The notes: generated by a model not told the origin, from the letters alone. A stretch of DNA of 64,000 nt from Bacteroidales bacterium (GCA_031260565.1 JAISLH010000015.1:452-64451), one strand, 5' to 3'. Numbered from the stretch's first letter, positions 7,693 to 62,382 are shown. Numbers and translations: made by a program.

Positions 7693-7757
7693 TAATTTTC
7701 TAAAACAAAGCTTTAGAAAATTAAAACGCCGTTTCATTTTTACGAAACGGCGTTTTA
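7693..7757. repeat. Degenerate relative of the family-A element (two small hairpins)
   Basis: aattttctaaaacaaagctttagaaaatt plus aaaacgccgtttcatttttacgaaacggcgtttt share the aattttctaaa and aaacgcc/ggcgttt motifs with family A. Confidence 0.6.
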
Positions 7758-7819
7758 TTTCAACAAAACTTGACATCAATTTATTCAAGTAAAGTCTTTT
7801 TGTTCTAAAATGATATATG

Positions 7820-8678: not shown

Positions 8679-10328
8679 CTAATAATCGAAGCTACTACCA
8701 CCCAAAAACTCCCTCATAATTGAGTTTTGAGGTATAAAATCAACATTTCCTATCGGCTTGAAAAGAGATAAAAAGTTCCTTAATCGCCTTGCATCGGCAT
8801 AAGCCAATGATGTTTCTGGCACGTCAGCTAGCAGAGGTTCAACAACATTCTTCATAACGCTTATTTCATATAATAAGGAAGAATTAAAAACGCTGTCGGC
8901 ATTCTCTTGGTAAGGGAATATATGCTTTTCTTCTCCGTCTCTAACGCTCTGCCAACGGCTTATGGTCTGGTCGGCATTGTAACCTCGAAATTGATTATCC
9001 CTGACAATACGCCGAAGTAACCGATTATCGCTTGTGCTTATCAGGTTATGGCGGTCAATGGCTACCTGCGTCATAGCAGAGACGAAGATATGGTACTTTT
9101 GTTTGCGGGCTATCTTTTGGCTCAACATCGGATTTAAGGCGTGTATGCCCTCAATGATAAGAATAGAACTTGGTTTCATTTGTAGAAATATTCCGCTCTG
9201 TTCCCTGTTGCCGGTAAAGAAATTAAACTTTGGCAGCTCTATACTCTGTCCTGATAGAAGCTCTTGCATTTGTGCGTTGAAGAAATCAAGGTCTAAGGCT
9301 TCCAAAGCTTCAAAGTCAAAATTGCCATGCTCGTCTTTTGGCGTTAGTGCCCTATTTACAAAATAATCATCAAGAGATATTTGCAGAGGGTCAAAGCCCA
9401 GAACGGATAACTGAGTAGCTATTCGCCTGCAACTTGTTGTCTTGCCTGACGAAGAGGGTCCCGCCAAAAGTACTATGCGTACCTCGTCCTTGCGTTTGTA
9501 AATCTCATCAGCAATCTCGGCATATTTCTTCTCGTGAAGGGCTTCTGATATTTGTATTACCTGCTTCTGCTTGTTGGCTTCAATACTTCGGTTGAGGTCT
9601 CTGACGTATGGCGTTTCCAAAATATCTATCCAGTGTTTGTGTTCTCGAAAAACGGAAAACAGCTTGCTATTCGCCTTTGTCCTAACCACCTTTTGCGAAG
9701 GCATAACCAAGATCATACCTTTATTAAATGCCTTTAAGTTAAACTCTTTCAAATAAGCAGTGGAGGGGACAAGTTCAAAAAAGAAGCTATTGACTGTTTT
9801 GTCAAGATAGTCTAACTTTGTATAGAAACGTTGTCGGCTCTTTATCACCTCAGCCTTTTCATCTATGCCAACCTTTTCAAACAACTCCACAGCCGCTGTT
9901 GATTCCATTATCGTCCTCTCAAACTTTATATCGTCTTTTATAAGTTGTAACATCTTGGATTTAAGTTTGGTAATAATCTCATCAGAGGGCAAATCTACGT
10001 TCTGCACTTCCAAATAATAACCTTCGGACAATGAATGAAGGATACGTAATTCGCCGCTCTCAAAACATTCTTTGACCGCCTTGTAAAGCACAAACATCAG
10101 GCTCAGAGCATACATTCTTCTTCCGTTAGGGTTATCTATCGTTATGAATTCCACCCTTTTATCGGAGAAAACTTTGTAATATAAATTTTGAACCTTATTA
10201 TTGACGTACGCACCGAGTATTTGCGGTTTCTTTTCTTCCAAACCGACCCTTTTTATCACCTCTAAGAGCGTCTCACCCTCAGAAACAAGCACCTTTGAAT
10301 CGTTATTGACACATCTAATCTCTATCAT
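8679..10328 (-). CDS. Uridine/nucleoside kinase-family P-loop protein with an N-terminal TGS/ThrRS-like region
   Basis: It has the P-loop LLAGPSSSGKTT and a uridine-kinase-like C-terminal half. The N-terminal beta-grasp-like segment resembles a TGS domain. Confidence 0.65.
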   Translation of the reverse strand: MIEIRCVNNDSKVLVSEGETLLEVIKRVGLEEKKPQILGAYVNNKVQNLYYKVFSDKRVEFITIDNPNGRRMYALSLMFVLYKAVKECFESGELRILHSLSEGYYLEVQNVDLPSDEIITKLKSKMLQLIKDDIKFERTIMESTAAVELFEKVGIDEKAEVIKSRQRFYTKLDYLDKTVNSFFFELVPSTAYLKEFNLKAFNKGMILVMPSQKVVRTKANSKLFSVFREHKHWIDILETPYVRDLNRSIEANKQKQVIQISEALHEKKYAEIADEIYKRKDEVRIVLLAGPSSSGKTTSCRRIATQLSVLGFDPLQISLDDYFVNRALTPKDEHGNFDFEALEALDLDFFNAQMQELLSGQSIELPKFNFFTGNREQSGIFLQMKPSSILIIEGIHALNPMLSQKIARKQKYHIFVSAMTQVAIDRHNLISTSDNRLLRRIVRDNQFRGYNADQTISRWQSVRDGEEKHIFPYQENADSVFNSSLLYEISVMKNVVEPLLADVPETSLAYADARRLRNFLSLFKPIGNVDFIPQNSIMREFLGGSSFDY

Positions 10329-10359: not shown

Positions 10360-10367
10360 CAAAGGTA
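10360..10367 (-). promoter_or_regulatory. -7 promoter box (TACCTTTG)
   Basis: TAnnTTTG lies 32 nt upstream of the ATG at 10328. Confidence 0.45.
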
Positions 10368-10403
10368 GAAAAAATATCCGACAAATGGTTTTGCTAAAAT
10401 AAA

Positions 10404-10497
10404 ATGCCACCTTAATTTTCTAAAGCGGCGTTTCGTGACGCTAAAGTGGCGTTTCAGCGTCACGAAACGCCGCTTTAGGAAAAGCAAGCAGAGTTTG
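10404..10497. repeat. Family-A palindromic element, copy 2 (perfect 23-bp stem)
   Basis: The left stem is ctaaagcggcgtttcgtgacgct (10420-10442), the loop is aaagtggcgtttc (10443-10455) and the right stem is the exact reverse complement (10456-10478). Confidence 0.95.
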
Positions 10498-10726
10498 GTT
10501 TTTACCAAAGGGCGAAAAAAGGGGAGGAAGCACCTATGCAAGTTTATGAAAAATTATAACATTTTATTTATGCAATATAAAATTTATATAAAACCATTTA
10601 TTATAATTTTATAATGTACAAATTTATAATTTATAATAGCCTTATAATTAGACGTTAATCAATTTTTAGGGGCTTATTTAATGTTAAAAAAAGTTTTTTA
10701 CATTTGAATATTTTATATAAAAGTAG

Positions 10727-10767: not shown

Positions 10768-13700
10768 ATGAATACTAAAATTAAATTAAAAACGATTATT
10801 GTCTCATTACTAATGTTGATTTTAGCAATGAGTTCCAACTTTCTTTCTGCACAAAGCACGGGGTCTATAACGAACCTCTCTGGAGGTAATGGCTCTCAAG
10901 CTAATCCTTATTTAATATCAAATGCACAAGATCTTGTGGATTTGAGTAATTTTGTGTTAGCCGCCGATGATGATATTCATAATTGTGTTGGTATGTATTT
11001 TAAGGTTACAACCGATATTGATATGAAATCTATTGCAAATTTCGTTCCTATCGGCGGTAGAAGCAAAAAAAACAATACTGATGATGATGACGTAGCTCGT
11101 GTTTTCAGAGGAAAATTTGACGGAAACAACAAGGTCATCAAAAATTTGAAAATAACGTCTTCCACCAATTCAAACGGTCTGTTTGGAGTCGTAGTTACTG
11201 CCAGCAATACTACTGAAATTAAAAACATAACCCTTGACTCTTGTAAAATTGTTATGAACGGAGTTGCAGGGGGGCATATAGCACTATTTTCAGGAGCACT
11301 TATTGGAACTATGGAGGCTATGCCTTCGTCAGGTTGTGTCGTTAGAAATTGCCATGTTACCAACTCTACTATACAAGTTGGAAGCAATGCTGAATGTATA
11401 GGCGGGTTGATAGGATCTATATTAGTTGGCAATACTATTGAAGGCTCTAACCCGAATATTATTGTTGATAGTTGTTCTGTCAAATACTTTTATACACTAT
11501 CATCAACTACTGCGGCAGACCTATTTGGAGGATTGATAGGTGAAGCCAGTTGTGGTGTAGATATAACTAATTGCAACGTGGATCATTGTGTTATTGACCA
11601 TGGGGCTGGTAGTATTGGCGGATTGATAGGTAGAGCTGAGGGAGGTAGTGCTGCGAGTTATGCACGAAAGATAAGCAACTGTCATACCTTTTATAACCTT
11701 ATAAGAGGAAGTGGTGCGTGTGTTGGTGGAATGATAGGGAATGCTACCAGCAATCTTAATATTGAAGATTGCTCCTCATCTTATGATTCGGTTATGGGCA
11801 AAGGGAGAACAGGTGGTTTGATAGGTAAAGCTGACACCAACGTTAGCATAAAGCGTTGTTATAATACCTATTCTTATGTGCAAGACGCAAGTAACTTCGG
11901 TGCCGGAGGGTTGATAGGCGGAGCAGAGGCAGCAACTGTTACTATTGAAGATAGTTATTCCTCCTTATCTATAGTCGTTGGTTTGAACTATGCCGGTGGA
12001 TTGATAGGCGATTTTAATGGCGGTGCAAATTCTATCAAAAATTGTTATGCAGCGAATAAAGTGATAGCTTCGGGTACAGGTGGTAACCTTACCGCTTATA
12101 GGGGAGGGCTATCAGGTAAGATTCCATCCTCTACTGCGGTTCAAAATTCTTACTACATAAGTACATGGACAAGTCAATCCCTTAGCGGACAAAACACTAA
12201 TGCAACTCGTGGCGTTTCCAAAACTCCTGATCAAATGCGAGACATTGCCTTTGTTGGGACTTTGAATGCAGGCAGGACGAGTAATGCTGTTTGGTTTCAG
12301 GATACTGCTCTTTATGTCAATGGTGGTTATCCTATTTTGAAGTATGGTAGAGGTCAAGTGGGCAGCACTTATCAGATATGGAACGTTGAAGACTTGCGTG
12401 CTCTATCTGCAATGGTTCAAAACGGAATACCTACAGCAGGCAGCAACTTCCTTTTAATGGCAGACATCATCTTCCCTGCAAACGATAATTCTTTTATTCC
12501 TATTGGAGGCTGGGCTGATGAAAACACTAATGATGATGCGAAAGCTTTTAGCGGGAATTTTGCAGGTAATCGTTTCTACATTTCAGGTGCAGATATAAAC
12601 AAACCAAACAATGACTATGTAGGTCTTTTCGGACTTGTAGATGGAGGTCGTATAGAAGAGGTTGCTTTTCTTAAATCAAATATAGCAGGTAAGGATTATG
12701 CTGGTGGCTTGGTCGGTAAATTAGACTCTAAGGCAGTAGTCAATAGATGTTTTGCTACCGGTGATGTGAGAGGAGAAAACTATGTTGGTGGCTTGATAGG
12801 TTATATAGATGGTGCTGCAACGGTTGCAGCCTGCTATGCAAAGTGTGTAGTTGAGGGTATTGATTATGTTGGAGGCTTTGCAGGCTCTGCGGAAAAGGTT
12901 TATAACTCTTATTGTGTGCCAAATGTGTTATGTTTGTCGGACGCAAGTACTAATGTAGGTGCATTCTGCGGACATAGCAGTAATGCAACATCTTTGTTTA
13001 GTCAATGCTATTACAACTCAAATTGGACAACACAAGGAGGACTTACTTCAAACGCTTATGGCACACCAAAAACTAAAGCGGATATGGTAAATAAGGCAGC
13101 GTTTGTAACCCTTCTTAATACAGGGATAGATTACCCTGCATGGAGACTTGACGACTCTCCTTGGACGCGTAACGGAGGCTATCCTATCTTGGGTTATGAG
13201 CCTTTTGTAACTGACCTCTGTATTATAGAAGACTGGCAAACTATTAAGGTAAATACTAAAACTGATTATGACAACAGACCTTCTACAATCATCATTGAAG
13301 ACGGAGGTTCGCTTGTCAATAACTACACAAGTGGAGACTTTGATAATGTAACCGTAGAGCATAAACTTTATAACGAGCAATATAGTTTTATCGGCAGTGC
13401 TTTTGGAAATATTACCTTTGGTCAGTATCTCGGTGAAGACGGCAGCAAAACCTATCAAAACATATACGGTAATTATCCTGCTTCATGCCTGTTGTTCAAC
13501 TACAACTCAAATATGTGGTGGGGCGACCCAGACGGATATACTTATGCCGGATATAACACCAATATGGACGTTGCTAATGGTTACTTTACTTATATCCTTG
13601 ACCCTACTTACGGCACACCTTCCTTTCATCCAAGCAGTGTTGGAAAAATGGTTAAGCAATCGGCTAATGCAGGTAAGTTGTTTAATAAGGATATTACATT

Positions 13701-15254: not shown

Positions 15255-15485
15255 AATATTATAGTTTCCAAGTTAAACACTATAACTTTCGAGTTAAACA
15301 CTATAACTTTCGAGTTAAACACTATAACTTTCAAGCCAAACACTATAACTTTCAAGTTAAACACTGTAACTTTCAAGTTAAACACTATAACTTTCAAGCC
15401 AAACACTATAACTTTCAAGTTAAACACTATAACTTTCAAGTTAAACACTATAACTTTCAAGTTAAACACTATAACTTTCAAGCCA
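15255..15485. repeat. Tandem array, 21-bp unit AACACTATAACTTTCAAGTTA, 10 full units plus 1 degenerate leading unit
   Basis: Units start at 15276 and recur every 21 nt to 15485. Variants are gagtta, aagcca and ctgtaac. The leading unit 15255-15275 matches 16/21. Confidence 0.95.
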
Positions 15486-15524: not shown

Positions 15525-16199
15525 ATGCAAAGTGACTGGATTAAGTACAGAGAAGCAGATTTATTGCTGCAGGCAGGAGCTAATGAAAAGTATTTTATTT
15601 CGCTTGGTTCGCAATTTCCTTCAGCTGAGTTACAACGTTTTAGGGCAGCAGTAACAGCATTTAGGACGGCGTTCGCAAAAACATCAGACAAGGGCACATC
15701 AACGAGTGCTGATGTAAAAGCTAAAAATGATGCAAAAAAAGCGTTAATCGCTATAATGCGAGAGTTTTACAACAGGTATGTTATCGGCAGTCCGACAATG
15801 ACAAACGAGCAGCGGGAAACGTATGAATACCCTATCCACGACACCGAGCCAACACCTGTGCCTGTGCCAAGAATTGCTCCAGATATGGATGTTGATTTTT
15901 CGCAAAGAGGCTCTCATTTGGTGTATTTTGGCGAGGAGAATAGCAAACACAAAATCGTTCGCGGGCTGCCGAAAGGTGCTCATGGTGTGGAAATTTATCG
16001 CCTCATTTCGCACGACTCATTGCCAATTATGCCTGAAATTGAGACTATGGAATTTGTTGGGTTGGCTTCCAAAAGCCCGAAAGAATTCTTATACAAGAGC
16101 AGTGAAACCGGTTCCAGAGTGTATTATGTGGTGAGATATTTCAATGATAGAGGGGAGTTTAGCTTGTGGTCTAAGGTGGTGATGGCGATTGTGAATTAA
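15525..16199 (+). CDS. Hypothetical protein (224 aa) whose C-terminal half looks FN3/Ig-like
   Basis: The ORF is clean and non-repetitive. A Pro-rich hinge EPTPVPVPRIAP is followed by a beta-rich segment ending VYYVVRYFNDRGEFSLWSKVV, typical of FN3 C-terminal strands. Confidence 0.55.
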   Translation: MQSDWIKYREADLLLQAGANEKYFISLGSQFPSAELQRFRAAVTAFRTAFAKTSDKGTSTSADVKAKNDAKKALIAIMREFYNRYVIGSPTMTNEQRETYEYPIHDTEPTPVPVPRIAPDMDVDFSQRGSHLVYFGEENSKHKIVRGLPKGAHGVEIYRLISHDSLPIMPEIETMEFVGLASKSPKEFLYKSSETGSRVYYVVRYFNDRGEFSLWSKVVMAIVN

Positions 16200-21438: not shown

Positions 21439-21858
21439 TTAGCTTTGTAATCCGTGAATATCAACATTCGCTTCTACAAGCGTAACATCGTTTTTAAGAA
21501 ATGCACTGAACTCAGATGAAGGACGGAAGGTGCAATGAATTTCATCCTCCCCATCTACGCTAACTTGGGCGAGAGTAGTTTTGTTAGCGGACTTAAGAAA
21601 CGGCACAAGCGTTCCCAAAGCTCCAATCTCAACGGAATATCCCGATGCAATCTTTTCTTTAATCACATCAGTCAGGGCAAAAACAGCCGCAGATACGTCT
21701 GCTCTTGTCAATCCTTCCCGCTCTGTTATTTCTTTCACAAGGACATCAAATGAGATTCTCCCTGCATTAAACCGTTGCTTGCGGTATCTTGTACCCGGAT
21801 TAGCACCTACCGTCTGATTTTTCATTACCTTTACGAAAGGAAATTCTAATTTTTTCAT
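21439..21858 (-). CDS. Bacteroidota-type HU-like DNA-binding protein
   Basis: It is 139 aa. LTRADVSAAVFALTDVIKEKIASGYSVEIGALGTL resembles HU/IHF-fold proteins of the Bacteroidales HU_2 type. Its stop lies 3 nt before the RNB ORF start. Confidence 0.65.
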   Translation of the reverse strand: MKKLEFPFVKVMKNQTVGANPGTRYRKQRFNAGRISFDVLVKEITEREGLTRADVSAAVFALTDVIKEKIASGYSVEIGALGTLVPFLKSANKTTLAQVSVDGEDEIHCTFRPSSEFSAFLKNDVTLVEANVDIHGLQS

Positions 21859-21901: not shown

Positions 21902-21958
21902 CTAAAAAAATCGGACATAAAAACAACAACTCGGCAGCTGTCAAAAACTAAGTGCCGA

Positions 21959-22060
21959 CTTGTTGAAAAAAAAGTGGCTACTTTTGCCCAAGAAGTAGCC
22001 ATTTTATTTAAAAAAAGTGGCTACTTTTTACCCAAAAGTAGCCACTTTTTTTTCAACAAG
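21959..22060. repeat. Nested palindrome with perfect 27-bp inverted arms and an internal oppositely oriented pair of the same core
   Basis: cttgttgaaaaaaaagtggctactttt (21959-21985) is the exact reverse complement of 22034-22060. Inner copies aagtagcca (21992-22000) and tggctactt (22018-22026) allow alternative pairings. Confidence 0.9.
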
Positions 22061-22118
22061 TTGGGACTTCTGATTATCAAGTACTTACAAAGGGGTAATT
22101 TTGGGGTATTTTCAGCAT

Positions 22119-22150
22119 AAAAAAAAGGCACTTCCCGTTAGAAAAGTGCC
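22119..22150 (-). terminator. Rho-independent terminator of the 121-aa ORF
   Basis: On the minus strand, ggcactt-(10 nt)-aagtgcc is followed by T8, about 80 nt after the stop at 22231. Confidence 0.65.
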
Positions 22151-22230
22151 CCCGTCATCTTAATAAAAGAACGTGAAAAAAATTTATTTTTAGGCGGCAA
22201 AGTTACTACTTTTTCCGAGAATGACAAGTT

Positions 22231-22708: not shown

Positions 22709-22795
22709 CGGAAAGGGAGGGATTCGAACCCTCGGTACCAATAAAGGTACAACGGTTTTCGAGACCGTCCTAATCGACCACTCTAGCACCTTTCC
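22709..22795 (-). tRNA. tRNA-Ser (anticodon CGA)
   Basis: The reverse complement GGAAAGGTGCTAGAGTGG...ACGGTCTCGAAAACCGT...long variable arm...GGTTCGAATCCCTCCCTTTCCG folds as a class II cloverleaf. The 7-bp acceptor pairs, and the anticodon loop is CT-CGA-AA. No CCA is encoded. Confidence 0.9.
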
Positions 22796-26150: not shown

Positions 26151-26795
26151 ATGAACAAACAGAATAAAGAACCATGGTTTTCAGCTAAAAACCTAAAACT
26201 TATAAAGAACCCATTGAGTAAGGAAAACCCTATAACTGTACAGGTTTTGGGTATTTGCTCAACGTTAGCCGTTACAGCCAAAATGCAGCCTGCTATAGTA
26301 ATGGCATTAGGCGTTACGGTTGTTGTGGCAATGTCAAACCTTCTTTGCTCATTGCTTCGCAACACCATTCCGTCACGTATAAGAATTATAGTCCAATTGG
26401 TGATTGTCTCTTTGCTTGTCATAATTGTTGATCAGATATTGAAGGCTTTCGTGTATGAAATCAGCAAACAGCTGTCGGTTTTTGTCTCTTTGATTGTTAC
26501 AAACTGCATTGTGATGGGTAGAATTGAGGCTTTCGCTTTGAGTAACAAACCAGTACCTTCGTTTATTGACGGAATAGGAAACGGTTTAGGCTACGGCATC
26601 ATTTTGCTTGTTGTTTCCTTCATCAGGGAGTTGTTTGGTAGCGGTACGTTATGGGGCTATAATGTTGTTCCTCAGTGGCTATACGAACATGGATACTCCA
26701 ATAACAGCCTTATGATAATGCCTCCAATGGCGTTGATAGTCGTTGGGCTTATCGTTTGGGCACATCGCAGTCGCAACAAAGAGCTTTGCGAATAA
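26151..26795 (+). CDS. nqrD: Na+-NQR subunit D
   Basis: VQVLGICSTLAVT...RIIVQLVIVSLLVIIVDQILKAF...SKQLSVFVSLIVTNCIVMGR...FIDGIGNGLGYG is nearly colinear with Vibrio NqrD. Confidence 0.9.
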   Translation: MNKQNKEPWFSAKNLKLIKNPLSKENPITVQVLGICSTLAVTAKMQPAIVMALGVTVVVAMSNLLCSLLRNTIPSRIRIIVQLVIVSLLVIIVDQILKAFVYEISKQLSVFVSLIVTNCIVMGRIEAFALSNKPVPSFIDGIGNGLGYGIILLVVSFIRELFGSGTLWGYNVVPQWLYEHGYSNNSLMIMPPMALIVVGLIVWAHRSRNKELCE

Positions 26796-26837
26796 CCAAA
26801 GCCACTTCACTTTAACAAAACAGCCTTTCAACATTAC

Positions 26838-26915
26838 CAAACGCTGTTTTAATTTTCTAAAGTGGCGTTTCGTGACGCTAAAGCGGCGTTTCAGGAAAAT
26901 GAAACGCCACTTTAA
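26838..26915. repeat. Family-A palindromic element, copy 3 (box order swapped)
   Basis: In ttctaaagtggcgtttcgtgacgctaaagcggcgtttcaggaaaatgaaacgccactttaa, the T-type box occupies the outer positions and the C-type box the centre. Confidence 0.85.
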
Positions 26916-27052
26916 AAGAGTGGAATATTATAAGGTGTAATCAGTGTGTTAAAATAACCTGTTATCTCCCTGTTTTGTGTTGGATTTATTAACGTTTTCT
27001 TTCTGCTTTTTGGGGTCTGCGTTCATTTAACTTAGCGTTTTATTGAATTAAA

Positions 27053-31440: not shown

Positions 31441-32676
31441 TTAGTCTTCCGGCACTACAATAGGAAAGTCGTAATCAAAGTCAGGGTGGCAAGGCTCGCC
31501 TATTATTCTTTTAAGAAAATCTACATACATCGGCGTAAAACGAAACGTATTAGCGTCAAAATACTCCTCAGGCAGAGCGCGGTTACCTATTGAACCCATA
31601 TCAATAGATGAGCAGTTAAACTCCTCCAATTCCTGATAAGTACAGACACGATTTAAGACCGGCATTTGACCATACTGCTCCCGAAGAAGCAAATCAACAA
31701 CCTTGTCGGCAAGCGTCTGAGTTAAACGCCTGTCATATTCACTGCACATACCGCCTCGTGGGTAATAGCCTGTGATTTGAGCCCTTGCGTCAATCTTTAA
31801 TTTGGTAGCAATCTCCGAAGCAATCAATCCACTGATGCCTCCCAAACGTGCATGCCCGTACTCGTCCTGTTCGTTGGAAGCATTGACAACTTCACACCTG
31901 CCACTTTCGTCATTGAACCAACGGACACCTTCGGAGACTGGAATAATTAAGGTTTTCTTTGTATTTCTTAGATACGTTTCTCTCACCATTTCAAAGAAAA
32001 AATCCTTTCGCTCTTTGTTCATTTCCACCTCAGGCACAAGACAGATGTCGCCAGAGCCAAAAACACCTGCTCCCGTCAGCCAACCGGCATCGCGACCCAT
32101 AACTTCCATAACCATAATTCTTGAATGGCTTTCGGCAGTAGTCTTCAAGCGTGAAGCAAAGTCCGCAATACCTTTGGCAGCAGTCGGAAAACCGGGACAG
32201 ATAACTGCATCAACGGTCTTATCTCCAAAAGTATGCCAAGTCTTTGTCCGCAAATCGTTATCAATCGTTTTAGGAAAGCCAATGACTGGGATACCCTCTT
32301 GTTCATATAGTTTTTTGGCTGCCCCGTTAGTATCATCACCGCCGATAGTTACAAGAACATCTATCTTATAACGCCGAAAATTTTTCAACACTTGCGGCAC
32401 GCGGTCTTCGGTGTTTTTCTTTGAAGGGAAGGGGTTAGTCCTTGACGAGCGTAAAGCCGTGCCACCATATAATCCATTGTATGTTTGATTGCTCAAATCC
32501 ACAATATCACCTTCGCCCAGTAAGCCTTTCCAGCCCTGACGCACGCCATAGACCTTGAAGCCGAGCATTGACGCCCGATTCCTTACCGCTTCAATACTTG
32601 AATTGATTGCAGGAGTATCACCTCCGCCACTAAGAATAGCAATAGTTTTGCCGTTGAATAACTTGTGTTCTCTCAT
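31441..32676 (-). CDS. pfp: 6-phosphofructokinase, PPi-dependent type by motif
   Basis: It has GGDTPAINS, TIGGDDTNGA (Asp instead of Gly) and PKTIDNDL (Lys instead of Gly). I moved the start to Met19 because the -7 box at 32700-32707 lies inside the longer ORF. Confidence 0.75.
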   Translation of the reverse strand: MREHKLFNGKTIAILSGGGDTPAINSSIEAVRNRASMLGFKVYGVRQGWKGLLGEGDIVDLSNQTYNGLYGGTALRSSRTNPFPSKKNTEDRVPQVLKNFRRYKIDVLVTIGGDDTNGAAKKLYEQEGIPVIGFPKTIDNDLRTKTWHTFGDKTVDAVICPGFPTAAKGIADFASRLKTTAESHSRIMVMEVMGRDAGWLTGAGVFGSGDICLVPEVEMNKERKDFFFEMVRETYLRNTKKTLIIPVSEGVRWFNDESGRCEVVNASNEQDEYGHARLGGISGLIASEIATKLKIDARAQITGYYPRGGMCSEYDRRLTQTLADKVVDLLLREQYGQMPVLNRVCTYQELEEFNCSSIDMGSIGNRALPEEYFDANTFRFTPMYVDFLKRIIGEPCHPDFDYDFPIVVPED

Positions 32677-32699: not shown

Positions 32700-32707
32700 C
32701 AAAAATA
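32700..32707 (-). promoter_or_regulatory. -7 promoter box (TATTTTTG)
   Basis: TAnnTTTG lies 24 nt upstream of the ATG at 32676. Confidence 0.45.
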
Positions 32708-32835
32708 CAACTTTTATTCAATACAACCAAAAAAACGCTTATTTTACTAAAAACAAGTATCCGTTTTCTCAGTGGTCTATATTTTTCAATAAATAGCTAA
32801 TACATTTTGGAGATAAGAAGGATGAATTTATCAAA

Positions 32836-32929
32836 ATGCCACTTCATTTTTCTAAAGCGGCGTTTCGTGACGCTGAAACGCCACTTTAGCGTCACGAAAC
32901 GCCGCTTTAGGAAAATGAGGCAGAGTTTC
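32836..32929. repeat. Family-A palindromic element, copy 4 (central box inverted)
   Basis: It has the same 23-bp stems as copies 2 and 6 (32852-32874 / 32888-32910). Its loop reads gaaacgccacttt, the reverse complement of the loop in copies 2 and 6. Confidence 0.95.
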
Positions 32930-33003
32930 ATTTCAATCAAGCAAAAAAAAGAAAAGGACAGATTTGCACCTGCCCTTTTCTAATTCAAGCCTTAACGGTT
33001 TAT

Positions 33004-36000
33004 TTATTTATTGACAATCAACTTTTGTGTTCTGTTGATGTCATTGTTCAGTATTCTAACGTAGTAAGTGCCTGCTGCATAATGCTCAACATCTATTGCC
33101 AATATCGTCTGGTTTGCTTTGATGTCAGTCTTTGCAATTACCTTGCCCGTAAGGTCGGTGATTGTAATCTGTGCATCGTCTCTCAAACCTGCTATTGACA
33201 AGGTTGCGGTATGCGTTGCAGGATTTGGATAGATGTTTATTGCTACTGCATCAATATCAACGTCAGACAGACCATTGCCATCACAAGTAGTAAATTGCTT
33301 CTCTACTCCATAATAAGCAACACTTCCAACCTTAGCATAAGCTACGTAGAAGTAGTTATCGCCATAATTGAAGCCAGTAGCAGTTGCCGTCATAGTCGTT
33401 CCAACAACAGGCATATTTGACGCAGCAATCGTTCCGTTATCAACCGTTAAGCCGGCAGTAGTACCATAAATGAAGCCAAATTCTGTTGCCATTGGTGTGC
33501 CTACGTTGGTTATCGTTCCTGCGAAATAAACTACAACGTCACTAACGCAAGTTACCGTAGCCGTATCAGTTACAACAACAGGATTCATGCCCTGCATTAG
33601 GAAGGTTAATTCACTACCATAAGTTGTGCCGCTGGCTGTTGTGGCATAAGCTTTGAAAGTATAGCTTGTGTTCGGTGTTAAAGCGGTAAGGTTAGCGGTT
33701 ATATCCGTTGTACCTGTGGCTGCTATAGTTTGCCATGAAGATGCGGTGCTTACTTTATATTCAAAACCTCTTGCTGTTATGGTTTCTGTCCCTGCGGCTG
33801 TTGTGCCGTTGAGTGTGGCTGTCGTATTAGTTATCTCTGTTGCGGCAAGAGTTGTTACCGTTGGAGGTGTATGCTGTAAAGTTGTAAAGGTTTGCTCACT
33901 GCCGTAAGTTGTACCGCTGGCTGTGGTAGCAGAAGCTCTGAAAGTATAGCTTGTGTTCGGTGTTAGAGCAGTAAGGTTGGCGGTTATAGTTGTTGTACCT
34001 GTAGCGGTAATAGTTTGCCATGAAGAAGCAGTGCTTACTTTATATTGAAAGCCTCTTGCTGTTATGGTTTCTGTCCCTGCGGCTGTTGTGCCGTTGAGTG
34101 TGGCTGTCGTATTAGTTATTGATGTTGCTGCAAGAGTTGTTACCGTTGGAGGGGTATGCTGCAAAGTTGTAAAGGTTTGCTCGCTGCCGTAAGTTGCACC
34201 GCTGGCTGTTGTGGCAGAAGCTCTAAAAGTATAGCTTGTGTTTGGTGTTAAAGAAGTAAGAGCGGCGGTTATATTCGTCGTGCCTGTGGCGGTAATAGTT
34301 TGCCATGAAGATGCGGTGCTTACTTTGTATTGAAAGCCTCTTGCTGTTATGGTTTGCGTGCCTGCGGTTGTTGTACCGTTGAGGGTAGCTGTCGTATTAG
34401 TTATTGCTGTTGTGGCAAGGGTTGTTACCGTTGGAGGGGTATGCGTTGTGCTAAAGGTTAATTCGCTGCCGTAAGTTGTGCCGCTGGCTGTTGTGGCAGA
34501 AGCTCTAAAAGTATAGCTTGTGTTCGGTGTTAAAGCAGTAAGGTTAGCGGTTATTGTCGTTGTGCCTGTGGCGGTAATAGTTTGCCATGAAGATGCGGTG
34601 CTTACTTTGTATTGAAAGCCTCTTGCTGTTATGGTTTGTGTGCCTGCGGCTGTTGTGCCGTTGAGTGTGGCTGTTGTATTAGTTATTGTTGAGGCGGCAA
34701 GAGTTGTTATTACTGGAGGTGTATGTTGCGTGGTAAAGGTTAATTCGCTGCCATAAGTTGTTCCGCTGGCTGTGGTAGCAGAAGCTCTGAAAGTATAGCT
34801 TGTGTTCGGGGTTAAAGCAGTAAGGTTAGCGGTTATTGTCGTTGTGCCTGTGGCTGCTATAGTTTGCCATGAAGAGGCGGTGCTTACTTTGTATTGAAAA
34901 CCTCTTGCTGTTATGGTTTGTGTGCCTGCGGTTGTTGTACCGTTGAGTGTGGCTGTTGTTTGGGTTATTGATGTCGCTGCAAGGGTTGTTACCGTTGGAG
35001 GGGTAATGAATTGTGTGATGGCTATATCATCTAAATACATATTGTAGCCATACTGAGAAAGTGCCTTAAAGACTATGTATTTTGTACCACTTAAAGCTGA
35101 AGGTATGGTATATGAAATGGAATCCCAACCTGCTGTTCCCATATTTGAAACGAAGCCTAACAATGTTCCGCCAACCGTATCAGGTGTTGAATTAACATAA
35201 ACATAAACTCCTTCGTTAGCGGATGAATAACTTCCTGTATATTTGTAAAACCAGAAAGACAGAAGCATATTTCCAGATAAGCTTATTTGAGGAGAAGCCA
35301 TTGTTGTCCATGCTCCTACTTGATTCTGGCTGTCATAGCTTGCATATTTAGCCATATTACTACCACCGTGAGGGGCACAAGTAGGAGTGACTCCCGTTGT
35401 TACTATTTGCCAATAAGTATTTGCAGCTGCTCCTGACGAAGCTAATGTCCAGCAACCAAAACCATTTTCAAAGCCCTCTGTATATGGAAAAATTGTTACC
35501 GAAGAGCAAAGAGTTGTAAAGGATTGCTCTTCTCCATAATAAGTGCTTCCAGCTACCGTTGCATAGGCTCTGAAAGTATAAGTGGTACTTGGTGTTAGAG
35601 CAGTGAGGTTAGCAGTTATGGTTGTTGTTCCTGTGGCTGCAATAGTTTGCCATGAAGATGCAGTGCTTGCTTTGTATTGAAAACCTCTTGCCGTTATTGT
35701 TTGGGTTGAAGAAATAGCTCCGTTAAGTGTTGCTGTGTTTGCGGTAACAGATGTTGCGGCATAAGTTACAACAGCAGTAGTTCCCAATGCACTTTGGATA
35801 CCAGCAAGGGCGTTAATTTTACCATAACCCCATGTGTTATTAGGAACAGAAGAGGTATAGCTATCGGTTATTGATGTTGTTTGTAATATTGTTTTGACTT
35901 GTGAAGGAGTTAATGAAGGATTTGCCTGCAACCACAAAGCTATAACCCCTGCAACAAAAGGGCTTGACATAGATGTTCCCGAAGCAGTACCATAGTACCA

Positions 36001-39234: not shown

Positions 39235-39242
39235 CAAATATA
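39235..39242 (-). promoter_or_regulatory. -7 promoter box (TATATTTG)
   Basis: TAnnTTTG lies 22 nt upstream of the ATG at 39213. Confidence 0.45.
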
Positions 39243-39279: not shown

Positions 39280-39670
39280 CCGAACGCCAAATTAGCAAAA
39301 TCCTCTCCCAAAACGCTATTCTACTTTCTCCAAACGCCACTTTAACTTACTCAAACGCTGTTTTAATTTAGCGAAACAGTGTTTTATTTTAGCGAAACGC
39401 TGCTTTATTTTCGTTAGATGTACATCTAAAATAAATAAGATGTACATCAAAATAAAATAAGATGTACATCAAAATAAAATAAGACGTACATCAAAATAAA
39501 ATAAGACGTACATCAAAATAAAATAAGATGTACATCTAATGAAAATAAGATGTACATCAAATAAATTTTAAGTGGCGTTTCAACAAAATAAAACACTGTT
39601 TCGCTAAATTAAAACAGCGATTGAGTAAGTTAAAGTGGCGTTTGGTTATGTTAAAGTGGTGTTTGTGGAA
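39280..39670. repeat. Composite palindromic element B1: 61-bp inverted arms plus 7 x 22-bp phased GA[T/C]GTACATC array
   Basis: Arms 39330-39390 and 39585-39645 are reverse complements at 60/61. Palindrome copies start at 39417, 39439, 39461, 39483, 39505, 39527 and 39549. Extra degenerate boxes lie outside the arms. Confidence 0.95.
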
Positions 39671-39891
39671 AATAGAATGATATTTGGCAGCAACCAAATG
39701 AAGATTTAATTGATTAAGGCTTGAATGCGTTTTAATGAAATCAAATTATTGGTTATCAGTGTATATAGTTGCAGTATTGATACAAAGTTTTCACCCGTCT
39801 AAATAATATTTTATGGCGGCGAAGTAAAATTTTTTGATAAAAAATGCTTTATTTCAAATTTTTATATTATTTTTGCAGGTTAATTAGATAT

Positions 39892-43849: not shown

Positions 43850-44191
43850 TTACTTAATTTCTTTTATCATCTGTTCTATTTCTCTTTTCAAAACAGGCAA
43901 ATGTCGCACTACAACACCCCAAATAATCCCATCGTCAATTTTATCATAGCCGTGAATGACCCTATTTCTCATTCCTATAATTTGCTTCTTCGCTGAAATG
44001 TTTATGTTGGGAGCATTTTTTTCCAATCTGTTCATTGCTTCTCCTATGATTTCGAACTCTCTTTCAACGGCTCGCCGCAACATTTGATTAGACATATAAA
44101 CATTGAAATCAAGATTTTCTCCCAAGTAGTTTTCTATTGAGAGTATGGATTGTTGAATGTCGTACAGATACTTTTTAATCTCTATTTCCAT
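43850..44191 (-). CDS. hepT: HepT (DUF86) toxin of a type VII HepT/MNT toxin-antitoxin pair
   Basis: It has the Rx4HxY motif RNRVIHGY, is 113 aa, and overlaps the upstream nucleotidyltransferase gene by 17 nt. Confidence 0.8.
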   Translation of the reverse strand: MEIEIKKYLYDIQQSILSIENYLGENLDFNVYMSNQMLRRAVEREFEIIGEAMNRLEKNAPNINISAKKQIIGMRNRVIHGYDKIDDGIIWGVVVRHLPVLKREIEQMIKEIK

Positions 44192-44486
44192 ACAACAAAA
44201 CTTTTGACTGGTTAATAGACTGAATGAAATAAGGGTTTTTTAAAGAGTTTTCAGTTACCAAATCAACAGGTCGCTCAAAAATCTCTTCTAATTGTTCTGC
44301 CGTTTCAAAATAATTATCAGCATAATCGGCATAATCCATAGCCTTAAATGACACCAACAAATCCACATCACTTTGAGCATTGAACTTATTAGTCAATGAT
44401 GACCCAAAGACATACATAGCATCAACAAAATGGCTATCACAAACCTGCTTTATGCGTTCTAAATTTGAAGTAATAAGACTATTCAT
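44175..44486 (-). CDS. mntA: MNT-type minimal nucleotidyltransferase antitoxin
   Basis: It has YVFGSSLTNKFNAQSDVDLLV (GSx10DxD). I chose the start at Met35 because a -7 box (44513-44520) lies inside the longer track ORF. Confidence 0.75.
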   Translation of the reverse strand: MNSLITSNLERIKQVCDSHFVDAMYVFGSSLTNKFNAQSDVDLLVSFKAMDYADYADNYFETAEQLEEIFERPVDLVTENSLKNPYFIQSINQSKVLLYGNRD

Positions 44487-44512
44487 AGCAAAATCCCTTT
44501 TAATTACACCTG

Positions 44513-44520
44513 CAAAAGTA
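44513..44520 (-). promoter_or_regulatory. -7 promoter box (TACTTTTG)
   Basis: TAnnTTTG lies 27 nt upstream of the ATG at 44486. Confidence 0.45.
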
Positions 44521-44802
44521 GGAAAATTATTTTTAATAACTGCGGTTTTTGCACTTTCATTCAAAAAATATTTTTCAAGGATTGCCACATTCTTTCAAAT
44601 ATGTTATGTGTCTTTCTGTATTCCTGCTTTTTTATCCAATAATCTTCACGCAATTTTCTACTTTCTTTTATTACTTTAGGTTGAGGACAACTTAAGGAGT
44701 CTTTTTGCCGTATTTAATGATAGCAAAGGTACATCTTTTTTTTTGAAACAACAAAATAAATCATCATTTTGCCCTCCTCTACCCACATTCTAATTTAGCA
44801 TT

Positions 44803-44898
44803 ATGCCACCTTAATTTTCTAATGCGGCGTTTCGTTACGATGAAACGCATATTTAGCGACACGAAACGCCGCTTTAGGAAAATGATGCAGAGTTTGGT
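44803..44898. repeat. Family-A palindromic element, copy 5 (degenerate)
   Basis: The sequence is atgccaccttaattttctaatgcggcgtttcgttacgatgaaacgcatatttagcgacacgaaacgccgctttaggaaaatgatgcagagtttgg. Confidence 0.85.
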
Positions 44899-44948
44899 TA
44901 AAATAAAACAAAGAAATAGCGAAATGATGCTAAGCAACAAACTTTTAT

Positions 44949-45962: not shown

Positions 45963-45984
45963 GGAGTATGATTGGCGGAAACAA

Positions 45985-46040
45985 ATATGGCGTTAGGAAA
46001 TTAAAAACTGCCTTTCGCTTTGACGAAGTGGCATTTGGTT
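45985..46040. repeat. Partial or degenerate family-A remnant
   Basis: atggcgttaggaaattaaaa...gaagtggcatttggttaaaat resembles the right end of copy 1 (gaggtggcatttggctaaaatg). Confidence 0.4.
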
Positions 46041-46223
46041 AAAATCGTATTAAAAAAAGGGTAAAACGGAGCAGGGAAATGGTGTTTTTAATGAGTGTTT
46101 TGTGTAAATTTTATGAGATAAAAACATAATTATTATCTCACTTTCTGACCACAATTTTACGTAAGATGATGATCAAAATCAACTCCATTGACGCTATCTT
46201 GCCCAGAATACAAAAAATATATG

Positions 46224-51256: not shown

Positions 51257-51370
51257 TTTATTTTTTTTAATTTCTTATTAACTATAAATAAGACACATTT
51301 ATTGTGTGATTTGTTTCATTTGGGCAAAATATTTTAACAATGGGGAAAAAGACTCCTCAATTTTAGCCAA

Positions 51371-51465
51371 GTGCCACCTTAATTTTCTAAAGCGGCGTTT
51401 CGTGACGCTAAAGTGGCGTTTCAGCGTCACGAAACGCCGCTTTAGGAAAATGAAGCAGAGCTTGA
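51371..51465. repeat. Family-A palindromic element, copy 6 (perfect 23-bp stem)
   Basis: The stems are 51387-51409 and 51423-51445 and the loop is aaagtggcgtttc (51410-51422). The core is identical to copy 2. Confidence 0.95.
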
Positions 51466-51770
51466 TTTTGGCAAAAGAGCATAAGTTTCTATTCGTTGTT
51501 TAGTTTGAGAATGTAAAAGTACAAAAAATAAAATTAAAATGAGGTATCTCTGTTATCATACACAAATTGCTTAAATTTATAGTAAATTTTGTTAATTCGA
51601 GTTTTGATAGGATATATCTGAGTTTGGAGGCTAAATTATCAACATTTAATTTCTGTAAAATGAAAAAAAGTTATTGTTTATCAATAAAAAATTTGGTAGT
51701 CTCAAAAATAAGTTGTTACTTTGCAAACTCAAATTTAGAGTATTTTTTATAATTAAAACAAGAATTAGAA

Positions 51771-57511: not shown

Positions 57512-57538
57512 TAAAACTACAAAACTTTCTTTCAAAAG

Positions 57539-57846
57539 AACGAAGCAGTGTTTTAATTCACTCAAGCAGTGTTTTAAATCACTCAAACAGCGTTTTAAAT
57601 TACGGAAGCAGTGTTTAAACTTCTTGAAACAGCGTTTGAGATTCATAAGATGTACATCTTTTTTTCATAAGATGTACATCTTATTTTCGTTTGATGTACA
57701 TCTTATTTTATTTTGATGTACATCTTATTAAATTTAGATGTACATCTTATTAAGTTTTGATATATACCAAACTAAAATAAAACACTGCTTCCGTAAATTT
57801 AAACACTGTTTCAGTAACTTAAAACACTGCTTCGTTAAGTTAAAAC
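57539..57846. repeat. Composite palindromic element B2: imperfect inverted arms of AAGCAGTGTTTTAA-type boxes plus 5 x 22-bp phased GATGTACATC array
   Basis: Palindrome copies start at 57649, 57671, 57693, 57715 and 57737. The first 18 nt of the left arm (aacgaagcagtgttttaa) are the exact reverse complement of 57819-57836. The left arm carries one extra box. Confidence 0.95.
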
Positions 57847-58013
57847 AAAGTAAGAGCGAAATGTAATCAAGTTTGGGAGCGACAAAACAAAATAAGAGCA
57901 AATTAAAACCTTACTTTATTTTAGCCAAAGGAAGAATGAAGGGAATAATATGGGCTGTTATCCCCGTAAAACCGCATATTGCGTTGTTGGAATATGGTTA
58001 CGCAAAATTTTAT

Positions 58014-59374: not shown

Positions 59375-59407
59375 CAATGACTGCACAGGGCTTATATATT
59401 AAGTTAA
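59375..59407. repeat. 33-bp direct repeat, left copy, flanking the R-M cassette
   Basis: caatgactgcacagggcttatatattaagttaa is identical to 60989-61021. It begins 2 nt after the atoD stop codon. Confidence 0.97.
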
Positions 59408-59448
59408 TATACACGAATAATAAGTTAGAGTATCATATTTTATAATCA

Positions 59449-60231
59449 ATGGAGCTATCAACGATATACAATGAGAATTGCTTGGAAACAATGAAGCGTA
59501 TGCCTGATTGCTTTCTTGATTTTGTTATTACATCTCCCCCTTACGATGATATTCGCAATTATAACGGCTTTACTTTTGAGTTTGAAGATATTGCGAGGCA
59601 GCTGTTCAGGGTTATGAAAGAGGGGGCTGTTATGATATGGGTTGTTGCAGATGCTACAATAAATGGTTGCGAAAGCGGGACATCATTCAAGCAGGCGTTG
59701 AAGTTTATTGAGATAGGCTTTCGGTTGCACGACACTATGATTTATTATAAAAACAACCCTATGCCACAAACAGGCAATCGCTATCATCAGCACTTTGAAT
59801 ATATGTTTTGTCTTTCCAAAGGCTCGCCTAAAACATTTAATCCAATAACTGAAAAGACCAAATACAACGGTTTGGCTAATATGAAAAACAGAGGTAAGAG
59901 AGGGGAGTTGCTTTATGAAAAGATAGAGCGAACAAGTGAAAAGAAGGTAGGTAATGTCTTTTGTTATTCCGTTGGTGGGGGCATTTCAACAAAGGACAAG
60001 ATAGCTTACAATCACCCTGCAATATTTCCCGAAAATTTAGTTAAAGACCAGATTAAGAGTTGGACTAATGAGGCGGACTTGGTTTATGACCCCTTTATGG
60101 GAAGTGGCACAACGGCAAAGGTAGCTCAGCTTATGAACAGACGTTGGATAGGCTCTGAAATATCAACGCAATATGTTGAAATTGCAGAGCAAAGAATAGC
60201 TCAGTATGTATTAGATGACTTATTTGTTTAG
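59449..60231 (+). CDS. Beta-class amino DNA methyltransferase (SPPY type, probably N4-cytosine or N6-adenine)
   Basis: It has motif IV ITSPPYDDIRNY at the N-terminus and motif I DPFMGSGTTAKVA at the C-terminus, at 260 aa. Confidence 0.85.
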   Translation: MELSTIYNENCLETMKRMPDCFLDFVITSPPYDDIRNYNGFTFEFEDIARQLFRVMKEGAVMIWVVADATINGCESGTSFKQALKFIEIGFRLHDTMIYYKNNPMPQTGNRYHQHFEYMFCLSKGSPKTFNPITEKTKYNGLANMKNRGKRGELLYEKIERTSEKKVGNVFCYSVGGGISTKDKIAYNHPAIFPENLVKDQIKSWTNEADLVYDPFMGSGTTAKVAQLMNRRWIGSEISTQYVEIAEQRIAQYVLDDLFV

Positions 60232-60234
60232 ATT

Positions 60235-60987
60235 ATGGATTTAGTTCAAAGAGGCTCTCAAACGGCAAAAGATGGTTTTCGTAACGAAGATGATATTGTT
60301 ATAAAGTTTAATAATTGGCAAAAAGACAACGAAGCTAAACTTTGGTTAGAGTATATGGGCTATAAGCTGGAGGATATTGAATATGTTAAGGTGATAAAGG
60401 TTGCAAAAGCTAAAACAGATGTTCAAGTTCAAATAACGATTAAATTAAAGAAAATAATAGATGCACAAAACATTCAGGTAAAACTTGTGAGCAACAACTC
60501 TGGCTTTAATCAAATAGATAAACGTTGGGTTGATAATTATGTTGAATTATGGAATATACCAAATGATGTTTCATCGTTATTAAAGCAATACACTGGGGAA
60601 ACAAAGCCAACGTTTAACACAAAAGACAAGAGGAGAGCTTTCGCAAATGAGTTTAACGACCAAGAGCAAATGAAGCTAATCAAATGGATAAAGAACAATC
60701 AATCACTAATAGTATCTGATATATTAAAAGGCAGAGGGCAGTTAGCTGCGGAATGGATGCTGGTCGTTCAAAAAGCTAACTCTACAACCAAATGGATACT
60801 GAACTCAATGAACTATTGCCTAAACTTCTTTGGCAATGGTGATGTTGTCATAACAGGGAGAGGGAGCATTAGAATAGGACAAATTACCATGCAACGCAAA
60901 GGTGGTGATGGAGGAAGAGATACGGCAAATATGTTACAATTCAAAATCAATCCTGCGTTGTTGTTTAAAAATGAAATAACAAAATAA
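60235..60987 (+). CDS. Type II restriction endonuclease, HinP1I/MspI-like by motif
   Basis: It starts 3 nt after the methyltransferase stop and is 250 aa. A PD-(D/E)xK variant has E18, D62 and Q81-V-K83 (KTDVQVQI...NIQVKLVSN). Confidence 0.6.
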   Translation: MDLVQRGSQTAKDGFRNEDDIVIKFNNWQKDNEAKLWLEYMGYKLEDIEYVKVIKVAKAKTDVQVQITIKLKKIIDAQNIQVKLVSNNSGFNQIDKRWVDNYVELWNIPNDVSSLLKQYTGETKPTFNTKDKRRAFANEFNDQEQMKLIKWIKNNQSLIVSDILKGRGQLAAEWMLVVQKANSTTKWILNSMNYCLNFFGNGDVVITGRGSIRIGQITMQRKGGDGGRDTANMLQFKINPALLFKNEITK

Positions 60988-60988
60988 T

Positions 60989-61021
60989 CAATGACTGCAC
61001 AGGGCTTATATATTAAGTTAA
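60989..61021. repeat. 33-bp direct repeat, right copy
   Basis: It is identical to 59375-59407 and begins 2 nt after the endonuclease stop codon. Confidence 0.97.
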
Positions 61022-62298: not shown

Positions 62299-62382
62299 AC
62301 ACAAAAATATGTATGGGCGAATTATCATGTAGGAGTGAGGTTCGCCCGTCCTATAATCAAAAGAATAACCAATATTTAGACA

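Follow-up and report, generated by a model that had tools for sequence, protein, structure and literature searches.

A mosaic palindromic repeat family built on a 13-mer box in the intergenic DNA of an uncultured Bacteroidales bacterium

The palindrome at position 10391–10508 is one copy of a real and previously undescribed family of bacterial repeats, which is of the same kind as the REP, BIME and MITE repeats and does not constitute a new kind of system. The family was analysed in a window of 64 kb of chromosomal DNA from an uncultured Bacteroidales bacterium, which encodes proteins with type IX secretion sorting domains as well as nqrABCD, dnaG, cysS, pfk and dpp7. We lean, with modest confidence, to the reading that the feature is a non-coding and non-autonomous mosaic palindromic repeat (REPIN/BIME/MITE-like) which is selfish or neutral and belongs to the DNA level. 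This is the best-supported reading, and it rests on the strictly extragenic location of the copies, on their presence in all types of spacers, on the discrete border of the element, on the existence of subfamilies with derived asymmetries, on the decay of copies, on the lineage-specific sequence, and on the turnover of sites.

The basic unit of the family is a box of 13 nucleotides with the consensus RAAGYGGCGTTT, which occurs in a C-type and a T-type variant. When up to one mismatch is allowed, the box AAAGYGGCGTTTC has 21 matches in the window, whereas 0.14 matches are expected from dinucleotide-preserving shuffles; none of 100 shuffles reached this number, and the box is over-represented 150-fold. 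In addition, every match to the 12-mer core with no or one mismatch is located in non-coding DNA, which makes up 13.5% of the window. The initial annotation had described a dense and strictly intergenic family of palindromic elements built on a 13-mer box, and these numbers bear this description out. The box itself is not a palindrome, as AAAGYGGCGTTTC agrees with its own reverse complement at no other place than the AAA/TTT ends when both are read side by side. Elements of the box family fill about one fifth of the non-coding DNA of the window. Among the 18 spacers of at least 100 nt, 12 carry a box-type array or a palindrome, and half of these 12 are canonical copies, which lie between divergent genes (three copies), between convergent genes (two copies), and between genes in tandem (one copy).

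In flank alignments of the six good copies the block of similarity comprises ∼118 bp and drops sharply beyond, so that the unit is longer than the ∼90 bp that had been assigned to it before. Also the number of boxes has to be revised from three to five phased boxes per element, which are spaced 20, 21, 22, and 20 bp apart and are oriented either − + + − + or − + − − +. The two outermost boxes are degenerate and read AAGGTGGCATTT at the left side (minus strand) and GAGGTGGCATTT or GAGGCAGAGTTT at the right side. Each module of 21–22 bp consists of a box plus one of a few fixed spacers, namely GTGACGC, GGAAAATGA/TAATTTTC, and GGTTAAAAT/TAATTTAGC. The outer boxes form terminal inverted repeats of ∼30 bp together with the spacers TAATTTTC/GGAAAATGA and TAATTTAGC/GGTTAAAAT, the two inner boxes form a stem of up to 23 bp together with GTGACGC/GCGTCAC, and the fifth box is the loop. 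At the right end four copies have diverged to GCAGAGTTT, and this common end implies that they were copied from a common template.

No two copies are identical and the pairwise identity ranges from 65 to 94%. The copies, decaying members included, fall into two subfamilies, A and B, the latter comprising the two copies 1758 and 26838 from which the GCGTCAC arm is missing. A perfect stem of 23 bp with a loop of 13 nt had been given as the general form of the element; it is found in three of the six copies (10404, 32836, and 51371), not in copy 44803, which has stem mismatches, and not in the two copies that lack the GCGTCAC arm. The loop box of copy 32836 is the exact reverse complement of the loop of copies 10404 and 51371, and the same holds for the loop box of copy 44803, which is degenerate. 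As the asymmetric flanks keep one orientation throughout, whichever way the central box faces, the loop has been inverted inside the element. The motif GTAG is absent from the element, GTGG occurs only within the T-type and the outer boxes, and the foot of the main stem is CTAAAG/CTTTAG. We did not find a target-site duplication at the borders of the five full copies when the flank alignments, in which the borders can be placed to within a few bases, were read by eye, and the same alignments did not reveal any conserved flanking tetranucleotide.

The focal copy (10391–10508, subfamily A) has its boxes at 10402(−), 10422(+), 10443(+), 10465(−), and 10485(+). Its stem is formed by the nucleotides 10420–10442 and 10456–10478, which pair perfectly over 23 bp and enclose the central box as a loop of 13 nt. 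The copy is located between divergent genes and upstream of a TAnnTTTG −7 box at 10367; it scores 131.9 bits with the covariance model described below and folds as DNA with −35.4 kcal/mol (z = −7.7). Copy 51371 (51358–51475, subfamily A, 135.6 bits) is 94% identical to the focal copy and is found ∼300 nt upstream of dpp7. Copy 32836 (32823–32940, subfamily A, 133.4 bits, z = −10.9), the central box of which is inverted relative to 10404 and 51371, is flanked by the terminator of the upstream gene (32950–32981) and by the pfk promoter (−7 box at 32707). Copy 44803 (44790–44907, 124.5 bits, z = −4.6) is a decaying member of subfamily A with uncompensated stem mismatches and a central box that is both inverted and degenerate, and is flanked by two divergent −7 boxes, 44731(−) on one side and 44949(+) on the other. 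Both copies of subfamily B are situated between convergent genes. In copy 1758 (1745–1862, 121.6 bits, z = −8.8) the terminal inverted repeats are near-perfect (AAATGCCACC...GGTGGCATTT), and the upstream gene has its own terminator at 1427–1456, separate from the copy. Copy 26838 (26828–26925, 95.2 bits) is truncated at the right side, has two outer pairing boxes of the T-type and a central box of the C-type, and is found directly 3′ of nqrD at the point where the nqr operon ends.

The covariance model was built from the six good copies and then scored on the same six copies. Thus, their scores of 95–136 bits are circular and only express the mutual similarity of the copies. Further matches of the model within the window are weak, namely 7695–7783 (31.5 bits), the composite elements B1 and B2, and 21983–22080, and the match 45993–46047 is not significant. 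Folded as single-stranded DNA, the six copies reach −19 to −40 kcal/mol, with z values between −4.1 and −10.9 when compared to shuffled sequence. In the correct register 90.7% of the pair cells are paired, compared to 41–49% when the partners are slid. The single compensatory pair is the swap of the box type in copy 26838, and it is not significant, as 215 of 500 shuffles are equal to it.

The six strong copies of the initial annotation are all retained. A seventh copy, which had been placed at 7693–7757, is a weak and degenerate relative at 7695–7783 (31.5 bits, E = 3.5e-5) that consists of two adjacent hairpins and looks like a bidirectional terminator, the hairpin 7722–7757 having a terminator-like stem of 16 bp and, on the minus strand, a T-run behind it. 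The supposed remnant at 45985–46040 is at most a possible one: the region 45984–46047 contains three box-like units and a GGTTAAAAT end, and with 16.6 bits, E = 0.52, and a fold z value of −0.4 it is without statistical support.

Two larger composite elements of the window are linked to the small elements, as had been proposed before from the box at the ends of their arms. B1 (39290–39675) consists of six 21-bp box units on the minus strand, seven 22-bp AGATGTACATC units, and five 21-bp box units on the plus strand, and is located upstream of the cysS −7 box at 39242. B2 (57524–57851) has the same architecture, is 81% identical to B1, and is located upstream of the promoter of the gene at 58044. 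Both arms of each composite element are arrays in which the same type of box recurs every 21 bp, and the core consists of five to seven 22-bp units with the palindrome GATGTACATC. On their left flank the small elements read TAATTTAGC-box-AATTTTC, which corresponds to the innermost arm unit of B1, ATTTTAGC-box-ATTTTCG. Thus, B1 and B2 have the arms in common with the small elements and differ from them in the core.

Several families of dispersed bacterial repeats invite comparison. The BIMEs of Enterobacteria are mosaics of Y and Z palindromic units, each a stem–loop of ∼35 bp with a GTAG foot, and of defined spacer motifs, and they are associated with the binding of IHF, gyrase or Pol I. Our element resembles them, as it is a mosaic of two unit types (C-type and T-type boxes) in alternating orientation with a few fixed spacers at operon boundaries. 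It differs in that its units are 13-mers without dyad symmetry and thus not palindromic units. Correia/NEMIS and ERIC elements are MITEs, that is, small non-coding elements with terminal inverted repeats which are species-specific and intergenic. The same features are found here, including terminal inverted repeats (AAATGCCACCTTAATTTTC...GAAAATGAGGTGGCATTT in copy 1758) and an exclusively intergenic location; in contrast to MITEs, there is no target-site duplication, the copies are much more diverged, and the core is palindromic instead of a minisatellite. In Porphyromonas gingivalis the BrickBuilt elements and MITE464/PgRS have internal tandem repeats of 23 or 41 nt, and PgRS also has repetitive flanks (PMC4596501). 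This architecture of a minisatellite core, with repetitive flanks in the case of MITE464, is recognizable in B1 and B2, whereas the IS5-type terminal repeat GAGACCTTTGCA (Table 2 in PMC4596501) is absent.

The REPIN/REP–RAYT systems (PMC3337134; doi 10.1101/2021.07.10.451892; PMC6006769) are similar in many respects. Like REPINs, the elements are inverted doublets of ∼100 bp that form a long hairpin, in our case from inverted arms of 23 bp and outer inverted boxes. They are also strictly extragenic and lineage-specific in sequence, form a diverged population of tens of copies centred on one most common ("master") sequence, may have persisted for a long time at the same gene boundaries, and do not duplicate their target. 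On the other hand, the box described here is not palindromic, the foot is without GT[AG]G, each element has five phased boxes with fixed spacers, and there is no RAYT gene within the 64 kb. The repeats of subclass 2.6 of TnpA_REP, which is specific for Bacteroidetes, are reported to lack the GTAG motif as well; they are "atypical" hairpins that flank the genes of this subclass and have copies elsewhere in the genome (PMC6006769). The CGTC-tagged palindromic repeats, which also occur in Bacteroidetes, have stems of 8–9 bp, loops of 4–5 nt, and a CCA tail (PMC3733652). They share with our element that they are short palindromes without a dedicated transposase, and the arm described here contains GCGTCAC, but with its stem of 23 bp and its loop of 13–15 nt the element does not include such a small hairpin. 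By its sequence, the element is not a member of REPIN, BIME, BrickBuilt/MITE464 or any Rfam family. We thus agree with the earlier view that the element is comparable in kind to the REP-, BIME- and MITE-type repeats. The suggestion that no description with this sequence is known for Bacteroidota is in line with the absence of the element from Rfam; analogues from this phylum have already been reported, namely BrickBuilt and MITE464 (PMC4596501) and the repeats of subclass 2.6 (PMC6006769).

At the Rfam gathering threshold the sole match within the window is a tRNA (22709–22795), and at a permissive threshold the focal copy matches generic long hairpins far below threshold. The exact 20-mer AAAGYGGCGTTTCGTGACGC has one match in 185,579 GTDB species genomes and three matches in JGI metagenomes; as these are single boxes in unrelated high-GC DNA, they are attributed to chance. 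The negative result for the JGI metagenomes is weak, since this collection apparently contains no samples of the sort this clade comes from. The double-box pattern is absent from viral contigs (two patterns searched), the element has no blastn match among plasmids, and literature searches not aimed at its sequence returned no earlier description of it. Several other kinds of elements are ruled out: CRISPR, since there are no spacers of this type; integron attC sites, since 6–8 kb separate the copies, which are surrounded by housekeeping genes; plasmid iterons or oriC in the case of B1 and B2, since both copies are chromosomal and DnaA boxes are lacking; and a link to the HinP1I (GCGC) restriction–modification system, since the box does not contain GCGC.

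Related Bacteroidales MAGs were compared at loci taken around the orthologues of pfk (83–91% identity), of dpp7 (77–79%), and of the nucleoside kinase beside the focal copy (72–75%). The 13-mer of the window is absent from all loci of the relatives that were fetched. Intergenic arrays or palindromes of 21–22-bp units with other box cores are abundant in all relatives examined except L007, which is the most distant relative examined (pfk locus, 83% identity) and is not rich in such arrays. The arrays of the relatives have spacers and a terminal unit as in the window and different box cores. For example, in L014 and L018 the box AAACAGCCTTT occurs with the spacers CGCTCGCACG, CATTTTAACC, and TAAAAATG, in L016 the perfectly palindromic box GAAACCTAGGTTTC occurs with the spacers ATTTCAC and GTGAAAATGA, and the palindrome unit CCCACGAAAAAAAAATTTAT of L003 matches the unit GCGTCACGAAACGCCGCTTTAG of the window at 12 of 22 positions. 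The element is the local variant of a wider superfamily of elements with 21–22-bp units in related Bacteroidales MAGs. When the relatives were scanned with the covariance model with the speed filters switched off, the top matches were L016 9797–9913 (38.5 bits, E = 2e-7) and L014 9585–9702 (25.4 bits), both upstream of dpp7, and L003 9832–9907 (27.2 bits) upstream of pfk.

Upstream of dpp7 an array is present in all three species (that of the window, L014, and L016), and the promoter is alignable in all three, while the upstream neighbour gene differs in each of them. The promoter-proximal terminal unit box-GAAAATGA-AACAGCGTTTGG is kept in all three arrays, and this common unit is a stronger argument for orthology than the co-occupancy of boundaries. 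At the nucleoside kinase the region upstream of the gene contains 21-bp units in an array in L018, and L017 has no spacer at this position. L018 is syntenic with the window across the kinase, tonB, and ABC-F genes and the spacers are alignable. The spacer between the kinase and tonB contains an element in L018 and none in the window; conversely, the spacer between tonB and ABC-F contains the degenerate 7695–7783 element in the window and none in L018. The homologous elements of the relatives together with the differing occupancy suggest that the superfamily predates the species, that some sites stay occupied, and that gains or losses occur. In total five boundaries are co-occupied, which is weakly significant, with a chance probability of ∼0.03 at a base rate near 50%, the base occupancy of the larger spacers being ∼50–67%. 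This weak significance, like the lack of significance of the single compensatory pair, is counted against our preferred reading.

A transposase of any kind, including RAYT/Y1 (PF01797), is not encoded in the 64-kb window. There is also none in ∼190 kb of the loci of the relatives, and no IS genes were found in ∼250 kb of the clade overall. That neither the window nor the loci of the relatives encode a transposase argues against an abundant parent IS. Taken together, the hairpin form, the missing target duplications, the differences among the copies, and the lack of IS genes favour a slowly duplicating, vertically persistent population of the REPIN type (PMC3337134; doi 10.1101/2021.07.10.451892) rather than a DDE-type MITE that has recently spread in a burst. 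With non-identical copies, one of which is decaying without compensation, the family resembles the old and slowly duplicating REPIN populations (doi 10.1101/2021.07.10.451892) and not a recent IS burst.

We suggest that the elements persist vertically in intergenic spacers and that a trans-acting factor, the gene of which would lie outside of the window, may occasionally place copies of them in new spacers. The likeliest candidate for this mobilizer would be a single-copy HUH/Y1 enzyme of the Bacteroidetes TnpA_REP (RAYT) type, which would use the hairpin in single-stranded DNA as substrate; such an enzyme would fit the missing target-site duplications, the hairpin architecture, and the diversity of the copies. 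Within each genome, gene conversion that uses the conserved arms as anchors could make one variant of the core uniform across the resident elements, and it may be an enzyme-free alternative explanation for the uniformity within a genome. The simplest explanation for the reversed loop box would be that it was flipped when the 23-bp arms paired or when the template was switched between them. In addition, the dispersed homologous palindromes may also act as substrates for recombination, and one copy is found at the nqr truncation point. Three observations on the mobility of the element are counted against the preferred reading, namely the lack of a mobilizing gene in the window, the lack of a target-site duplication, and the foot of the main stem without GT[AG]G.

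A role at the RNA level has to be weighed first against the position of the copies relative to promoters and terminators. Promoters were located by the Bacteroidota −7 motif TAnnTTTG, as the sigma-70 scan is uninformative for Bacteroidota, and by this motif the copies 10404, 32836, and 44803 as well as B1 and B2 are outside of transcription units. These five are probably not transcribed, and being upstream of or between promoters they probably have their role, or lack a role, at the DNA level. Nevertheless, the element could be imagined as a hairpin of the transcript that serves as a terminator, as a barrier for 3′ exonucleases that stabilizes the mRNA, or as the precursor of a small RNA. The great stability of the hairpins is in line with this, as is the location of copies 1758 and 26838 right after stop codons of convergent genes. 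Further support comes from two copies whose left end carries small hairpins that face outward and are followed by ATTTTATTTT, and from the terminator-like appearance of the degenerate 7722–7757 hairpin. However, the main stem is not followed by a T-run, half of the six copies lie between divergent genes, and the element has no match in Rfam. Moreover, the host uses terminators composed of a hairpin and a T-run, and separate canonical ones adjoin copies 1758 and 32836; only the hairpin 7722–7757 has the properties of an intrinsic terminator. We therefore regard a role as an ordinary terminator or as RNA as unlikely, and for the RNA-level explanation as a whole we see very little chance. The previous statement that the elements are not ordinary intrinsic terminators is in agreement with this, and the accompanying statement that none is followed by a T-run applies to the main hairpin and not to the small outward hairpins at the left end of the two copies.

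The main rival to our reading is a cis-element of the host. According to this explanation the phased boxes are a putative binding array for a lineage-specific protein, for example, a nucleoid-associated protein, a global regulator, an insulator or a domesticated transposase, and the box and the protein would co-evolve, giving species-specific cores at conserved gene boundaries. The asymmetric box indeed recurs in either orientation at a constant spacing of two helical turns (20–22 bp), copies are located directly upstream of promoters or between divergent ones, arrays are found in two thirds of the larger spacers of the window, and the boundaries of dpp7, pfk, and the nucleoside kinase are occupied in relatives by arrays with other cores and the same spacers. 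Selection for protein binding could be the reason why an asymmetric box is phased so strictly at 21–22 bp, and this point is counted against the selfish or neutral repeat. On the contrary, the genes adjoining the copies have no functional theme in common, copies between convergent genes exist (1758 and 26838), copies decay without compensation and remnants exist, the occupancy of alignable spacers differs in both directions, and no candidate protein was found. The phasing would also arise automatically from modules of 21–22 bp, the length of which is unchanged on inversion. On balance, a host cis-element appears unlikely, though it deserves to be kept in mind. Its far-reaching version, in which the boxes would be operators of a clade-specific binding protein at most spacers upstream of promoters, with a specificity that co-evolves with the core, so that the family would be a genome-wide architectural or insulator system and not selfish DNA, is in our view doubtful and somewhat less probable than the cis-element in general. 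Similarly doubtful is a classical MITE, that is, a deletion derivative of a DDE-type IS which is moved in trans by cut-and-paste via its terminal inverted repeats, with the subterminal boxes as transposase-binding sites as in the ends of Tn7, Mu, and IS21-type elements. The terminal inverted repeats of ∼30 bp, near-perfect in copy 1758, and the small size, lack of coding capacity, and multiple copies of the element are as expected for a MITE. B1 and B2 resemble arms with a different cargo, and the MITEs of P. gingivalis, which also belongs to the Bacteroidales, hold internal minisatellites of 23 and 41 nt (PMC4596501). Yet, a target-site duplication is found at none of the five full copies, there is no transposase in the window or in the ∼190 kb of the relatives, the copies are 65–94% identical and not near-identical, and the termini are unlike those of the MITEs from P. 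gingivalis, which are IS5-type repeats with GAGACC... (PMC4596501).

If the family is confirmed genome-wide together with its relatives, it would represent a REPIN/BIME-like system for Bacteroidota, where such repeats are sparsely described in the literature consulted. As the core of the box changes between species and the spacers and termini stay constant, it could be asked whether an enzyme or gene conversion renews the repeats. With its modular units, its species-specific cores on conserved spacers, and its very high occupancy of spacers, this clade is useful for studies of repeat renewal. In addition, the elements break short-read assemblies and one is found at the nqr truncation, so that they bear on the quality of MAGs and on genome rearrangement in this clade. 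Logan short-read contigs (SRR14710919) that encode proteins identical to those of the window end inside copies 10404 and 26838: contig L001 breaks at 10431 in the focal copy and contig L013 inside copy 26838. Such breaks are expected of a multi-copy repeat and carry no information beyond the window's own copies. An assembly artefact is ruled out, as the independent assemblies agree up to the break points.

Arrays or palindromes built from units of 21–22 bp were found in 12 of the 18 spacers in the window that measure 100 nt or more, and together they comprise ∼1.9 kb or about one-fifth of its non-coding DNA. The occupancy of individual spacers can be compared with a related Bacteroidales locus around the nucleoside kinase gene, L018, which is syntenic with the window and whose spacers can be aligned with it (positions 11681–11798 and 12713–12784 in L018, 8516–8678 and 7589–7819 in the window). 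An element separates the kinase gene from tonB in L018 but not in the window, and the degenerate element of the window (7695–7783) is missing from the tonB/ABC-F spacer of L018.

The region around nqr and pfk suggests that the repeats have also mediated a rearrangement. In the window (26151–27052) the nqr operon ends after nqrD, nqrE and nqrF being absent from the locus, and the element at 26828–26925 follows directly 3′ of nqrD. At the related locus L003 (8584–10001) the operon ends after nqrB and is followed by a related 100 bp palindrome and then by pfk. Inversion of the 6-kb segment between the element copies 26838 and 32836 would place pfk immediately 3′ of nqrD, an adjacency comparable to that of L003, and for this reason we suggest a repeat-mediated rearrangement. 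The L003 palindrome upstream of pfk (9820–9919) has arms of 48 nt which are 94% complementary. As an independent short-read contig (the start of L004) breaks at this palindrome, it appears to be multi-copy in its own genome too. The listed pfk reading frame starts with TTG at 32730 and codes for 429 amino acids; however, its homologues have 411 amino acids and a conserved promoter lies upstream of the ATG at 32676, and thus the true start is probably 32676.

Other repeats are present as well. Upstream of an unannotated open reading frame (15525–16199), a unit of 21 bp, CAAGTTAAACACTATAACTTT, which contains a 6-bp inverted repeat, occurs ten times in tandem (15269–15482). Between a terminator (22124–22153) and the gene of an HU-HIG-type DNA-binding protein (21439–21858), two repeats of a 43-bp unit (21950–22069) are composed of near-palindromic boxes, AAAAGTGGCTACTTTT, containing GTGG and CTAC; this region matches the covariance model of the element weakly (25.8 bits). 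Five tandem coding repeats of 285 nt (33602–35020, 83–89% identical) belong to a 1563-amino-acid subtilisin-like protein bearing a type IX secretion sorting domain.

A HepT/MntA toxin–antitoxin pair (43850–44588) adjoins element copy 44803. The genes of a HinP1I-type restriction endonuclease and its DNA methylase (59449–60987, within 59375–61021) are located inside a CoA-transferase/beta-keto-acid-cleavage gene cluster, have a perfect direct repeat of 33 bp, CAATGACTGCACAGGGCTTATATATTAAGTTAA, on either side, and look like an inserted cassette. A large N6-adenine methyltransferase reading frame with an NPPY motif (62380–64000) continues past the window end.
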